From Reclinomonas americana ATCC 50394 (lineage: Eukaryota), in assembly GCA_048213135.1 (NCBI GenBank), contig PS015113.1:79162-119244 (forward strand): a stretch of 40,083 nt of DNA. Reading direction: 5' to 3'. The position numbers were made by a program, and so were the translations under genes. The notes beneath the pieces were generated by a model. It saw nothing but the letters and a program-made list of their open reading frames with translations, did no database searches and had not been told where the DNA came from. Of the stretch, positions 4,592 through 40,000 are shown one piece after another. Each line of letters opens with the position of its first letter. The first letter of the stretch is position 1.

Positions 4592-7335
4592 CACAGTCCA
4601 CATTCTGCTCACTCGTTCTTGTGCTGCCCAACACGCAGTGAGAGAAGCACTGGCAAAGCATGCACTCTCTCGTCCGGTGACCGAAAACCTCATCGAACAT
4701 GTTGCCGCCAGTGCGCTTACTGCATTGCAGGTTCGCATTTGCTCTCCTCCTCTCGAGATCTCCCTTTTCTCTCTCTCCCACACGCCTTCTGCTGTGCTAT
4801 GCTGCTCGCAGACGGCCCAGCTGAGGCGCATTGGGTGCGGCGCTCTCACAGAGGTGACTGCCGATTGGAAAGCGAATCAAGTTTACTATGTGGATATGCC
4901 GCGCTATGTCATGCTCCCTGCACGAACTTGGACTGTGTCTGTGACGCTTGCGGGTGCATTGCAAGAGAGTGTGGTGCATGTGAACACGGACTCGGCGCCA
5001 ACGCTGTGGGGCGCAGGTGAGTGAGTTTGGAAGGGAAAGAAGTACTGATATCGCTGCGATCCCTTCGCTCACACTGTGAGTTTTCACCGCGTCGATGCAG
5101 TGTTGGCGGCGGTTGGCGAGGACAACGAGTTGGCTCGTGAGGTGCTGCAGCTCAGCTGGAATGCACTTTTGAAGGTGAGAAAAGGATGACAAGGTGCATG
5201 ATGCAGTCGCGTGTCTTCCGGATCCGAATTCCCACTGTTTTCTCCCCGCCGTTCGATGCCTGTCACGCCACCCTTCATCATCTTTGCTTGTCGCATGTCA
5301 CCCTCCCGAGCTGACCTGCATGTCGCGAAAACACAGAACACCAAGGAGAAAATCCTCGAGCATCGAAACCTGTATTGCGAGTTTGTTCGCGACTGGAGCG
5401 TTGCGTAACCACGTCCCTTCACCGACCTCAGCTTGTTGCGCTGCGTCACCGATCTCACTTGTGGGTGTTTGTGCACGCAGTCGCAAACACTGCCCACGCT
5501 GACACCTGCCGCGGACAAACTCGCCGCCGCCCGGCATCGACCATTTCTTGCCGAGTGGAGATATGCCACACCGCTGCTGCAGTTGTCGCTGTCGTCATCA
5601 GCGTCGCAGTTGATGCGAGCCGATCTTCTCTGCCTCTCTTTGCATGGTTTGTGCTGTGCTTGGCGCTGTGCGCTATCGTAACGGAGACGACTCACGATTG
5701 ATCGTCCCCTGTGCCCGTGCACCAGGAGGCACCGATCTGGTGATCGACGAGCAAGAGTGCGAGTATCTCGGTCCGCAGTTTGCGCAGCGCAGCCTCACCA
5801 TGGCGCCACCACCTCTACCTGATCGCTCCGAGCCTCCTGTGCACACCTTGTCGGCAGCGCTGCGTGCCAACAAGCGGATGCCTGTGTTTCCGCGCATCGA
5901 GTTCTATCCTACCGACCTGTGTCGCGAGATGGAGACGGAGATGTGGCGCGTGCTCACAGACAAGCGGGCGCTGGTGGAGGCGGCGGCTGCAGTTGGAGAC
6001 ATCCGTGCGCCGACACCGCTGTCGCTATTCCCGCAGGAAGGACCACCGATGCAGGAGAGCCGGGCGATGCTCGGAAAACTGGCGGCGATATTGGCTCGAC
6101 CGCGGATGACCGTGCAGCCTGGCAACTCACCGCATCGACTGGCGGTGTTCACAACCGTACAACTAGCACCAAAGAACTCGGAGCGATTCTTGGAGCTGAT
6201 AAGAGTGTGGGTGGCACGCTACTTCGCTGCGCACGGCGACCGCCTGCTTCCACTCATTGTGTGTGCTGACGAGACGACGGTGACGGCTGTCAAGGCAGTA
6301 CTGGGACCAGACAGAGATGCGGGGGTGATACTCGACGAGTCCGGCTGGTAAGTAGCGGTGGGGGAACGACAAAGGAAGATCGCCACTGCCGTCGTCGTAT
6401 GTGAAAACAGTTGCAATTGGCTGACAGGCGTGTTCTGTATGCGCGTACAGGTTGGTTGACCGGCAGCCCGACCGTATGAACTACGCGCCCGTGGTCAACC
6501 TGCGGTACATGTACGGCTACCTGCTGCTGCGATGCGGTGTTCAGCCGTTCTACACCGACATGGATGTCATGTTTGCGCGGCCGGTGTGGGACCTGCCGCA
6601 AGTGTCGTCCGCGTCGGAGGTCTACGACATCGTCCCCGATGTCATTTTCCAGGCCGATCTCTTTGGTGCCGTTGAACATGATGCGACGCCGATGCTGGCG
6701 GCGACACCGAGAGAGCGAACCCGCGATCCGTGGTCGTACGCCATTTCCACCAGTTTGTCAGACTTTGGTCCGGTAAGTACGTGTTTGTGCGAGGAGAGCA
6801 CCGCTGCGCTCACCGCCCCGCTCACGCACCCGCATTGTGCTTCTCCGTGTGATTGCAGGATGGCGTACCGGGCCGTGTGTGCGCCTCGCACCAGCATGGC
6901 TTGAGTATCAACACAGGAGTGTGGACAGCACGACCGACTGTGTATGCGCTGCGATGGTTTGCGGCTGCGGTGGGCCAGCTGAATCAGCGCTGGTCGGAGC
7001 TGCAGGATCAGCAGTTCATGAACGCGTTGGTGGACGTGCATGTGCGTCTCGGTCGCCTGCGCATCGACTGGTTCAATCTGCAGCAGGTCAACTCAACAGG
7101 CGGCATCGAGCTGTTGGTCGCACGACAACAATGGCGCGAGAAGCTGGAGGAGATGGACTTGGTGATGGTGAGAGAAGCCTGATCATGATCATGAGAGTTG
7201 CTGATTTCCTCTCTCACTCTCGCCGCCACTCACACGCATACGGCTGTACATGTGCAGGTGCACGCCTGTGGCTACGGAGACAAAATCGACATGCTGAATA
7301 GGAAGCTGTGGTGGAAGCCTCTTGAGTCGATGTAA
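3129..7335 (+). CDS. Secretory-pathway nucleotide-diphospho-sugar transferase (GT77/Nucleotid_trans-like), copy A, multi-exon, spans an N-gap in intron 1
   Basis: Hydrophobic N-terminus (MWACRVSFLFSLPLLLLLLL). GT-A motifs: YLLLRCGVQPFYTDMDV (DxD), DVIFQAD, SINTGVW, QDQQFMN and the C-terminal VHACG..KIDML..W. Confidence 0.75.
3399..3452. repeat. (GT)n microsatellite in intron 1, left of the gap
   Basis: Direct observation. Confidence 0.9.
3551..4427. other. Assembly gap of 877 N flanked by low-quality tacg-like sequence
   Basis: Run of N. Both flanks degrade into gtac/tacg patterns. Confidence 0.95.
4533..4588. repeat. (GT)n microsatellite right of the gap, probably the same repeat as 3399-3452
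   Basis: Both tracts are preceded by gtgagt…gtgta and followed by atacaca. Confidence 0.85.
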
Positions 7336-7398
7336 TAATGCTTGAAGGAGTTGTGGTTTCTATCAATCCATTCCGTCCGTCACAATATTGTTGTTGCA

Positions 7399-37076: not shown

Positions 37077-40000
37077 ATGGGTGTACTTGAGAGATTTGGC
37101 GACTTGGCGAGTTTCGACGCCGGCGTGCGTTCGCGTGCGGCCAAGGCACTCATCGATGAGCTGGAGCAGCTGCAGCGTTCGTTGCGTGCTTGCGGTGCTA
37201 TTTTTTGTGCAGGTGTCGGTCTGTGCATGTGCATGTGCACATGGCGCTGACCCTCGCTTTTTTTACTCCTTGCAGATTCGAGCAGGGCAGCAATGTGCGG
37301 AACATGTCGTCGGCTGCTCGACTGGAGCAGGTCTGCTGCACCGACTTGTTCTACTCGTTCAAGCGATTGGTGTCGGGACTGGCCTCCAATCGACAGGCCG
37401 CTCGTGTCGGCTACGCAGCCACACTCAGCGAGGTGTGTGTGTGGAGAGAGAGAAGAGAGAGAGGAGGGGGTGGGAGGTTCTCCGCATGTGAGGCGTGATT
37501 CTCACGGAATGACGTGGCAGCTGCTGCATCGCTTCCCGCAAGTCACCATTGACAACTTTCTGCGCTTCGCGGCCAAGACGCTGGAGTGCAAGTCGAACAT
37601 GAGTGGGCTGGAGGAGCGTGATCACATGTTTGGGCAGGCGTTTGCCATGTTTGCGCTGTTGCGATCGGAACGCTTGCATGGTGCGGGTTCGGAGGGTGGT
37701 CCCGATGCGGCGCTGCTGTCGCGTGTGCTGGCCGTGCTGCTGGATCTGGCCGAGAAACGCTCGTATCTGTGCCAGCTGGTGTACCGCGGAGTGTGCCTGC
37801 TGGTGGAACAGGTGCGGTTGCGAGAGTGGCGTGATTTCTCTGTGACCAGGAAAAAAAACTCACGATATGAATCATCATGCCAGTTGTCACCCGACGTGCT
37901 GCGCCAGGCCGTACTGCCGCGCATCAAGCCGCTGATCTCTGGCGCACTGCGAGCGCACACACCCGACACACTGGGTCTGGTGCTGGCGCTGGAGAAGAAG
38001 TTGCCAGTGGAGGAGCTGGGAGTGCCCGAGTTGCGCGGTGGCCGGTCCACGCTGCACCCTCTCAACATTCCACAGCTGGGTGAGCCGCTGAAGGAGTCGG
38101 TGGCGGCGCATCCCAAGCTGCACACGGTGTGGACGGTGATTTTGGATGAGATTGTGCCGAATGTGGATGATGTGAAGGAGGACGCGCTGGCCACGCTGTG
38201 GTCGACGGTGGTCGACGAGGCACTGCTGCAGTCGACACATCCGCGCAAGTTCCTCGCCTACCTGCTCTTCAACGAGGTGCTGAACCGGCTATCGCGATCG
38301 GCCAACCGCACCGTGTTCGATCTCATCTTCACGAAGCGATTCGTGGAGGCATTGGCCTTCGACGCACGCCACGTTGAGACGCAATTGCACGAGTCCGCCA
38401 AGTACACGGTGCGCAAGGGATAGAGAGGGGAGAAAAGGGGAGAGGCGTATGTGTCTGACTATGTTTGTTGGCATATGCAGCTGGAACAACTGGCCGTGCA
38501 CTGCCGCGGCAATGCGTGGCTGCGCCTGGCCACACTGGAGGGCTTCATTAACCACGGCACAGTGCGCTTCCAGACGCTGCGTCAGAACAAGCTGTTTTCG
38601 TCCATTTTCGCCTCGGATCTGGAGCCACCAGAAACTGGAATTCACGAGTTTGTGGAGTCGCTGTTGGAGAAGTTGGAAAAGTTGTGTACACTCGCCCGTC
38701 CAAGTGTCCTTCAGCCGCGCGGTGTTTGACAATTTGTGTGTGTGTGTGTGTATGTGTGTGTGTGTGTGTGCAGCTGTCGGTCGAGCTACGAAGGCGAGCG
38801 CAACGCACAGTGGATGTGGGTGTTGGAGCAGTTGGGAAGAGTGATGAAGAGCCCGCGGATCCGAAAGGATCCGGCCACGGTGCGGAGTGTGTTGCGGGAG
38901 CTGGCACGGCATGGTCTGTTTATGCGCCGAGTGGTCGGCAAGGTGTCCGCCGCAGCCGACGCTGCCGGTGGATCGTCATCGTCGGCCGCGTCGGAGTCTC
39001 GCGAGGTGTCACCGGCGGTGCGGGAGCAGTGTGCCAACAAGCTGCTGTCGTTGGTGTCGGACTTGGTGCACAACCCGGCGTTGCACACGCGGGGTGGCAG
39101 CAACCGCTCAGGAGGCGCAGACAAGGGCGGAGGTGTGTGATGCAAGGGCGGGGTGTGCACGGATAGTCATTATCTCACTGCATTTTGCGCCACGCAGACG
39201 ACGATGAGGAGATGGGTGGTACGTCGCCGGGTGTGTCCGAGTTGACGATGCAGAGCTGGTTGTCGGAGGTTGTGGATGTTGTTCGCGAAGTTGCGTTTTG
39301 TGGTCCGCGGTGTACAAAGGTGTCGACTGTGTTCTAGTGCTGGTTGCTCATATTGTGGTGCGCAGTTGGAGGAGGATGCAAGTTTGCGTCCGCAGTGGGA
39401 GCACAAGGACAATGCAGAGGTGTTGACGGCACAGCAGTCATTGCGACGTGCTCTGGCGGCACTGGATGGTATTCCGCGGAAAAACAGCAAGCTGGCCACT
39501 GTGTTGCCTGCCGTTTCGTGCCTGCGCGCGTCGAACTCCATTGCGTTGCACTTGCCGCTCACTGGTGTGATACGACAGAATGTGCCACTGGATGCGGCCG
39601 TGTCGTCGCTGCGGCTGCTGGCCACACAACTCCTCATTTTCACGTTTGTTCGCGGGCACGAGGTCCTGAACGAAATCGAGGTGAGTGGAGAGGGAGAGGG
39701 AAAGAGGCGCTTGCAGATGATGCGTGTCTCACGCAACTTGATGTGTGGCGCAGGAATTGTCCATGTTTTGTGTGGACATGTGCCTGGCGGTGCGAAGCAA
39801 GGATGCACAGAAGGGCAAGAAGAAGAAGTCGAGGAAGGCGGCAGAGGAGGAAGAGGAGGACGAGGAGGGAGGTGAGTAGTGGTGTCTCGAATGAGTGGAA
39901 CGGTCGTTGTCGAGGGTTCTCACGTGTGATGCGCAGAAATCTCGGTGCGATTCATGCCATTCCTCGTCGACTTGCTGTTGGGCATCCTCGTCAAGTCGTC

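Follow-up and report, generated by a model that had tools for sequence, protein, structure and literature searches.

GTTGCG introns as an abundant class of 5' splice site in a 40-kb window of Reclinomonas americana

A stretch of 40,083 bases from Reclinomonas americana ATCC 50394 (contig PS015113.1, positions 79,162 to 119,244; hereafter the window) carries some 17 genes, closely packed and with numerous short introns, and a large group of these introns opens with GTTGCG or, in one case, GTTGAG (together GTTGMG). Here we describe a computational analysis of these 5' splice sites, which had first been noticed in a reading of the letters without database searches (the sequence-only reading). The window has a G+C content of about 57% and contains seven runs of N; the data used are its DNA, gene models that we built ourselves, and protein homology. 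Positions count from the first base of the window, and its recognised genes are the following:

About 3075-13858, plus strand: unnamed family, three or four copies in tandem, the long exons of which have no Pfam match
14300-18241, plus strand: glycosyltransferase family 2, two tandem copies (PF00535)
Elsewhere in the window: metallophosphoesterase-like gene
Elsewhere in the window: lipase-like gene
Elsewhere in the window: ankyrin-repeat gene
Elsewhere in the window: RCC1-repeat gene
Elsewhere in the window: Mpo1-like gene (PF06127)
Elsewhere in the window: SAC1 (homologues with PF02383)
Elsewhere in the window: FtsJ methyltransferase (PF01728)
Elsewhere in the window: PP2A A subunit (protein homology)
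Elsewhere in the window: DNA-polymerase-phi-like gene (PF04931)

An exon-wise Pfam search with the metallophosphoesterase-like and lipase-like exons returned no match. In both tandem families the exons are well conserved and the introns have diverged.

Gene models were built with a Viterbi program of our own in three stages. On the curated strands, a donor model that was flat beyond the GT yielded 96 introns. A donor model divided by the base at +3 was then self-trained until it settled at 105, and a third stage, in which a periodic Markov model described the coding sequence and GC donors were permitted, gave 113. Hand editing of the third output produced a curated list of 107 introns, 105 of them with GT donors, in agreement with the hundred or so estimated by the sequence-only reading. 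The edits removed seven introns from dubious models at 1-2 kb (67, 289, 382, 530, 1116, 1423 and 1847) and three short in-frame false calls (15413, 23873 and 22888), divided 8265-8565 into two introns flanking a skipped exon, moved six donors (16638 to 16631, 20769 to 20746, 20578 to 20556, 26341 to 26317, 29391 to 29442 and 23155 to 23164), and added 14506, 14667 (donor only) and 7661. The model-called donors at 20578 (GTTGAG) and 1116 (GTTGCG) were rejected as false or dubious.

Donors were classed from the intron side only, those with G at +5 as register 0 and those with G at +6 and none at +5 as register +1. The 105 GT donors divide into 75 of register 0, 25 (24%) of register +1, and five of neither kind. 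Register +1 consists of 20 GTTGCG, one GTTGAG, one GTTGTG, two GTTTCG and a dubious GTCGAG at 15155. The sequence-only reading had listed 18 GTTG(C/A)G sites and proposed that they form an abundant second donor class; all 18 have the motif (GTTGCG at 17, GTTGAG at 18470), and with three further GTTGCG donors found here (20746 minus, 29442 plus and 36522 minus) GTTGMG accounts for 21 of the 105 GT donors, about one in five. The register +1 introns, and a GC-AG counterpart of one of them, are listed below with the exon in lower case and the support for each:

5400-5480, plus strand: agc/GTTGCGT; both self-trained models, GTTGCGT kept in copy 2 of the unnamed family
8496-8565, plus strand: cgt/GTTGCGT; paralogue of 5400, hand-placed from the paralogue alignment
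11999-12072, plus strand: aat/GCTGCGT; GC-AG counterpart in copy 3, called once GC donors were allowed
14506-14628, plus strand: agc/GTTGCGT; after the signal-anchor first exon of glycosyltransferase copy A, read in the sequence
16631-16713, plus strand: aac/GTTGCGT; paralogue of 14506, sequence reading and paralogue alignment
18470-18535, plus strand: ctc/GTTGAGT, the sole GTTGAG donor; flat and both trained models
19581-19640, plus strand: gtc/GTTGCGT; trained models only, joining ...GGTRVV-S-NQHG
20388-20441, minus strand: aaa/GTTTCGT; lipase-like gene, joining ...SVKMQ-N-FGMPRIGN
20592-20652, minus strand: aca/GTTGCGT; lipase-like gene, sequence reading
20691-20746, minus strand: ctt/GTTGCGT; lipase-like gene, new to the list, sequence reading, branch GGCTAAC
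25874-25941, minus strand: gca/GTTGCGA; RCC1-repeat gene, homologue scoring
26242-26317, minus strand: ctc/GTTGCGT; RCC1-repeat gene, homologue scoring
27772-27831, minus strand: gga/GTTGCGC; Mpo1-like gene, homologue scoring
28211-28318, minus strand: aat/GTTGCGT; Mpo1-like gene, YGAYHNNT-I-NKWVHIVFVP ungapped against homologues
29442-29503, plus strand: ttt/GTTGCGC; SAC1, new to the list, homology
30969-31039, plus strand: cca/GTTGCGT; SAC1, ungapped against protein P0123 across the junction
32362-32439, minus strand: gca/GTTGCGC; candidate intron, ambiguous, 78 bases, in frame and stop-free
33847-33910, minus strand: cca/GTTGCGC; FtsJ-like gene, flat and trained models
35408-35481, minus strand: caa/GTTGCGC; PP2A A subunit, gapless alignment with protein P0001
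35667-35736, minus strand: acc/GTTGCGT; PP2A A subunit, gapless P0001 alignment, NYLHRMT identical
36447-36522, minus strand: gat/GTTGCGT; PP2A A subunit, new to the list, gapless P0001 alignment
37181-37275, plus strand: ttc/GTTGCGT; DNA-polymerase-phi-like gene upstream of the Pfam domain, flat and trained models
38681-38773, plus strand: aaa/GTTGTGT; register +1 by its G at +6, trained models only
39290-39365, plus strand: gaa/GTTGCGT; DNA-polymerase-phi-like gene, trained models only
39513-39578, plus strand: gcc/GTTTCGT; trained models only

The frequency of the motif among donors is far above what its single positions predict, as a position-independent donor model expects 0.68 GTTGMG donors in this window and 21 are seen (P = 5e-25). 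Register +1 donors have T at +3 in 96%, G at +4 in 92%, C at +5 in 88%, G at +6 in 100% and T at +7 in 72%. They also differ from ordinary donors on the exon side: G stands at -1 in 64 of 75 register 0 donors (85%) and in one of 25 register +1 donors (4%; Fisher 1e-13), that one being the dubious 15155, and among the 18 sites first listed the -1 base is C in eight, A in eight, T in two and never G. The anticorrelation between the motif and -1 G is thus confirmed, and it persists when paralogous introns are collapsed (50/59 versus 1/23; 8e-12). The paralogous pairs 5400/8496 and 14506/16631 are not independent. In ten donors (GTTTGT, GTTGGT, GTTCGT) a T at +3 goes together with G at +5. Among donors with T at +3, -1 G occurs in nine of ten that have G at +5 and in none of 24 that have G at +6 (2e-7).

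The two classes are alike in intron length, branch motif and acceptor. All 25 register +1 introns begin with GT and end in CAG (22), GAG (2) or TAG (1); a CTSAY branch motif lies 8-50 bases before the 3' end in 19 of 25 (median 21) and in 60 of 75 register 0 introns (median 22); and median intron lengths are 71 and 72. A CTSAC-like branch motif followed by CAG or YAG lies downstream of each of the 18 sites. Introns of the minor spliceosome have donors of the RTATCCTT type. None of the 25 register +1 donors resembles this consensus, and a U12-type assignment was rejected.

Evidence for the position of some of these donors comes from junctions that lie within conserved protein sequence. Seven of the 18 (25941, 26317, 27831, 28318, 30969, 35481 and 35736) passed a junction-spanning homology test, and with 29442 and 36522 the total of register +1 donors fixed by homology is nine; removal of these nine introns gives proteins collinear with their homologues. 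For the PP2A A subunit a search with one exon returned a single protein, and none of the proteins returned for RCC1 and SAC1 was marked as the window's own. The spliced PP2A A product aligns with P0001 at 145 of 262 identities (55%) and with no gaps across six junctions, three of them GTTGCG (35481, 35736, 36522) and three ordinary (GTTTGT at 36306, GTTCGC at 35910, GTGCGT at 36080), and the YLHR-MT motif with which the sequence-only reading had pinned 35736 recurs identically in P0001. At 36522 the split codon T/CT encodes the conserved Ser of HV(R/K)SALAS and would become Cys if the cut fell one base later; such later cleavage (TT...AGN) was rejected here. The two positions are indistinguishable at 35736 and 20652 because the next exon begins with G.

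In SAC1, whose best named matches are animal proteins with about 50-56% identity, the models had used a donor at 29391, and an 11-residue gap against P0123 exposed it as wrong. The donor at 29442 is the only GT that preserves both the conserved P-x-x-R-G-Y/F motif and the downstream frame, and against 119 SAC1 homologues it raises the mean of the top 30 from 24.6 to 29.5 bits and the number of spanning alignments from 37 to 67; it leaves a 6-residue insertion relative to the homologues. The spliced protein shares 246 of 526 residues with P0123 and is ungapped at 30815 (GTTCGT), 30969 (GTTGCG) and 29247 (GTTGGT). Another protein, P0122, is a 343-residue open reading frame (ORF) that is 80% identical to a SAC1 exon and then continues into intron-like sequence, which indicates that a fairly close relative exists in public data. 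At the place of CA/GTTGCGT (30969) P0122 reads Q-L-R in a shifted frame, a reading compatible with conservation of the donor that would not amount to proof of it.

Homologue scoring placed four further junctions. In the RCC1-repeat gene the model with 25941 outscores those with 25929 and 25917 in 110 of 120 homologues and scores lower in four, and 26317 is better than 26341 in 115 of 120 and than 26308 in 113 of 120, restoring the GGHHFLALT end of a blade. The introns at 27039, 26317 and 25941 (minus) interrupt successive blades at the same point, just after ...H-x-x-A-(L/V/I)-(T/S), with GTTGCG donors in two of the three and GTGCGC in the other. In the Mpo1-like gene 27831 is better than 27837 in 77 of 83 homologues and than 27816 in 74 of 83, and 28318 is better than 28345 in 58 of 83 and worse in none; losses of these two junctions to their alternatives number 0-3, and both are ungapped in the three homologue alignments shown.

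Other donors are supported by motifs, frame or paralogy. In the lipase-like gene the sequence-only reading had noted a split GHS codon at 20652, and the junction indeed splits the Ser codon (ggc cac a/...cag/gt ctc gga) to give TGHSLGAAL, which we take to contain the GHSLG motif. The neighbouring donor at 20746, for which the models took 20769 or 20733, links ...VVTHL to CPECQTIITTGHSLG (CPECQTIITTGHS) in frame, and at 20441, which is supported by frame, a search for in-frame GT..AG alternatives found none. The same gene contains a GC-AG intron at 20819-20886 (minus; cag/GCGCGTTGG), a copy of the ordinary G/GTGCGT donor except for C at +2, which is required for the reading ...PGARVH-S-GFNAGY.

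Four donors are supported by conservation between paralogues, in which G(T/C)TGCGT is kept while the surrounding introns diverge. At 8496 the models had skipped the preceding 66-base exon, and a 6-base exon insertion preserves the frame. The GCTGCGT of copy 3 (11999) aligns base for base with the GTTGCGT of copies 1 and 2, and may be a GC-AG member of the same class or a sign of a decaying copy. A second GTTGCG lies inside the 5400-5480 intron (5435-5440, plus) and at the homologous place in copy 3 (12034-12039), and is absent in copy 2; as a donor, this inner copy (5435, 12034) was rejected, as the reading frame does not fit. In the glycosyltransferase pair the GTTGCGT at 14506 is identical in copy B and the intron diverges after +7; an in-phase GT 9 bases downstream may be used instead. 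At 16631 the models took 16638, from a wrong start codon.

Eight register +1 donors (18470, 19581, 33910, 37181, 39290, 38681, 39513 and the dubious 15155) are placed by gene models only. Removal of the intron at 18470 joins ...SAPIL to VLAGDIGH, where an exon-wise Pfam search gave no match, as it did for the exons flanking 37181 and 39290; at 39290 the flat model took 39278. The donor at 33910 falls in an insertion specific to the lineage (FtsJ profile positions 37 to 61) and is out of reach of homology. Pfam profile continuity confirms the ordinary junctions at 33549 and 33399 (FtsJ) and at 37433. The candidate at 32439 has two possible acceptors, the second trained model preferring 32337, and belongs to a gene without a homologue. 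Its first 16 bases are shared with the intron at 27831 (GTTGCGCGCGCGCAC), also on the minus strand and in an unrelated gene. With the exception of this pair, no sequence is shared past +7 among the introns, and a common introner-like origin was rejected.

Part of the 18 donors were also recovered by the gene models. The flat model found eight of the 18 exactly, where chance alone would account for about 1.6 GTTGMG picks (our own arithmetic), and the first and second self-trained models found 13 and 14; the four missed by the second were 8496, 14506 and 16631, which are backed by paralogue alignment, and 26317, which is backed by homology. At sites other than its eight the flat model usually picks an in-phase GT a few codons away, so that in this stop-poor DNA a donor is rarely pinned down by its frame alone. 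An automatic listing of in-frame GT..AG pairs chose wrong phases at several sites (14506, 20652 and 35481) and was not used as support. GTTGCG is unevenly distributed between the strands of genes, with 35 sense and 12 antisense copies (p 0.001), and GTTGCGT more so, with 19 and 3. Donors of the curated list make up 20 of the 35 sense copies, so that the sense excess is about the number of donors. The related hexamers GTCGCG, GTGGCG and GTAGCG have neither a sense excess nor any use as donors. Judged from the DNA and its protein homologues, the GTTGMG sites mark genuine U2-type GT-AG introns, in a compact genome rich in introns, and form a second major class of 5' splice site.

Donors are known to show compensation between their exonic and intronic sides. 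In the ordinary register NGTTGCG lacks G at both -1 and +5 and a purine at +3, the opposite of this compensation. Moved by one base, register +1 fits the ordinary profile: G at +1 corresponds to the ordinary -1 G (85%), T at +3 to T at +2, G at +4 to G at +3 (73%), G at +6 to G at +5, and T at +7 (72%) to T at +6 (67%), while position -1 (A40 C36 G4 T20) resembles the ordinary -2 (A44 C19 G11 T27; p 0.29). The sequence-only reading had described the motif as the ordinary donor displaced by one base; this description holds for these positions but fails at +5, where C reaches 88% and the corresponding ordinary +4 is mixed (A36 C36 T24 G4), GTGAGT, GTGAGA and GTGTGT being together more numerous than GTGCGT among ordinary donors.

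Taken together, we give a probability of roughly 60% to the reading that register +1 is a routine second donor class with which U1 small nuclear RNA (snRNA) pairs one base out of step. In such a helix C9 of U1 would lie on the first G of the intron instead of on an exonic G, the intron U at +2 would stand unpaired opposite C8, and the UGCGU that follows would replace the usual UGCGU of G/GUGCGU; cleavage would still occur before the GU. The +5 G, the usual partner of U6, would now be at +6, so that U6 either would ignore it or would also pair out of step, with the alternative that a bulged U is tolerated. With one pair lost, only the best-pairing GCG version might be tolerated, which would explain the dominance of GTTGCG. 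The standard U1 5' end is AUACUUACCUG. By a hand count against the human U1 end, which may differ from that of the host, GUUGCGU forms four Watson-Crick pairs and one wobble when shifted and two and one in the canonical register. The available part of Tan et al. 2016 (PMC4856993) gives the U1 5' end as AUACψψACCUG.

Several observations count against this shifted reading. The shifted helix on GUUGCGU has two internal mismatches with the standard U1 end, and GUUGAGU, which should pair better with it, is found at one donor only. In exon-side models the whole advantage of the shift comes from position -1, while -2 and -3 give -1.4 and -1.7 bits, and the gain of the shift model at -1 over background composition is only 3.4 bits. 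Finally, the statistics come from a single 40-kb window, all gene models are our own, and six hand edits introduce GTTGCG donors; for this reason the statistics were also computed on unedited model output, in which -1 G occurs in 66 of 79 register 0 and 1 of 21 register +1 donors (2e-11).

The absence of G from -1 also has to be read with care. The sequence-only reading had said that G never precedes these donors, and none of its 18 has one; G, however, stands before just 15% of GTTG copies, and before 2 of 27 GTTGCG copies, that are not donors, so that the result is mostly a loss of the canonical preference, with avoidance that is weak at best (0.85^24 = 0.02). The contrast with ordinary donors answers the refuting condition set by the sequence-only reading, in which independent positional frequencies or intron composition would explain the motif and its -1 base; the absolute absence of G does not.

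It is on this contrast that shifted and bulged pairing can be told apart. U1 might instead sit in its normal register, with C8 on G+1, A7 on one U, the extra U bulged out, and GCGU pairing normally. The adjacent U's at +2 and +3 would permit such a one-base bulge (of the 25 register +1 donors, 24 have T at +3), the available part of PMC4856993 describes human sites with a bulge at +3 (or +2), and positions -2 and -3 do not favour a shift. A bulged helix would nevertheless leave C9 free for an exonic G, and -1 G would be expected in about 85% of donors; it is seen in none of 24. The shifted register, with C9 on the intron G, beats the bulged-U model by 56.8 bits, of which -1 contributes +59.8. 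The contrast in -1 G between the classes thus favours the shift, and bulged pairing appears unlikely.

A retuned or second U1, the 5' end of which matches GCG (for instance G at 5 and C at 6, or an extra A matching GUUGCGU), would make the class a reflection of snRNA sequence and not of register flexibility in a standard U1. The sequence-only reading had suggested a variant U1 or U6 snRNA, or an altered U1C or LUC7, as a possible cause. Ordinary donors in the window have some features that such a U1 could account for, since G outnumbers A at +3 nine to one (73% versus 8%), +4 is A36 C36 T24 G4, and GTAAGT is used by 4 of the 105 donors only; the C found at +5 in 88% of register +1 donors is likewise unexplained by a standard ACψψAC end. 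Against it, C9 of a U1 lengthened by one base to match GUUGCGU would remain available to a -1 G, which is not seen, and C is not favoured at +4 by ordinary donors without -1 G (GTGAGT 4, GTGCGT 3, GTGTGT 2). We regard a retuned or second U1 as improbable.

That the class is an artefact of frame-guided modelling, which could misplace boundaries in stop-poor GC-rich DNA and draw the motif from TG/CG-rich intron composition, is very improbable: alternative in-frame GT..AG pairs do occur around nearly all introns (they are lacking at just 2 of 26 register +1 sites), the hexamer shows no overall enrichment (71 matches in the window, 69.8 expected from shuffles) and a self-trained donor model can reinforce itself, but homology fixes nine junctions, the donor-blind run recovers eight of the 18, the 35:12 strand asymmetry roughly equals the donor count, and the three related hexamers show neither asymmetry nor donor use.

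A broader version of the shifted reading joins it to a retuned U1. In this lineage about a quarter of introns might be recognised with U1 out of step and cleaved six bases upstream of the G paired with U6, U6 being flexible genome-wide, by way of a U1 5' end with G and C at 5 and 6 that is perfect for GUGCGU and would explain why only GCG tolerates the shift. We put this forward tentatively, as a possibility that we rather doubt. A scan of the 40-kb window against Rfam at gathering thresholds gave no matches, and snRNA genes were not found there.

The remaining observations concern the surroundings of these introns. Microsatellites of (GT)n, (CA)n and (CT)n are common in introns (for example 3490-3550, 14560-14620 and 38730-38773), and several runs of N (3551-4427 and 14811-14830) start within them. 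A metagenome scan with a glycosyltransferase exon returned five loci (L001-L005) with 29-46% identity and more than 85% of their bases in long ORFs; they were rejected as relatives, as contigs made up almost entirely of long ORFs look prokaryotic or viral.

If the shifted reading is correct, flexibility of the U1 register would count among the mainstream ways in which splice sites are recognised, and the host would offer hundreds to thousands of natural cases of how U6 and U5 set the site of cleavage when the +5 G is displaced. The class would also account for the systematic mistakes that gene predictors make after training on one donor matrix; our own models misplaced 4 of the 18 listed sites and 2 of the 3 further ones. 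In addition, the class leads to a sharp prediction for the host's U1 and U6. A literature search found no such donor class described in any organism, although splice-site logos or supplementary files could have escaped it, and the available part of PMC10599564 does not mention registers.

The closest parallels are in human genes. Atypical human 5' splice sites are reportedly read by U1 in a +1-shifted register (Roca and Krainer, in 2009). The donors described here resemble such sites in having a U after the GU, the +3 to +6 signal at +4 to +7, no -1 G, and cleavage before the GU, and they differ in consensus, which is GUUGCGU here and of the /GTTAAGT type cited for the human sites. Both shifted and bulged-base registers are described in the available part of Tan et al. 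2016 (PMC4856993), according to which all validated noncanonical registers together make up 1.5% of human 5' splice sites, compared with the 24% of 105 donors that register +1 represents in this window. The human +3 (or +2) bulge sites in Figure 1C of that article likewise carry an extra U after the GU and a downstream signal displaced by one, but they leave C9 of U1 free for a -1 G, which here occurs in 0 of 24. For U6, the available part of Kramarek et al. 2024 (PMC11162779) places cleavage normally five bases upstream of the pair between +5G and C42 of U6, and describes the tandem donor of STAT3 exon 21 as the first alternative U6 register reported, with a distance of four bases. Introns of register +1 would share with STAT3 exon 21 a distance other than five between the cleavage site and the G paired with U6 C42; in the part of the report cited here, however, the STAT3 case is a single site with four bases (-1), whereas in the window the distance would be six (+1), if U6 pairs as proposed, in about a quarter of the introns.

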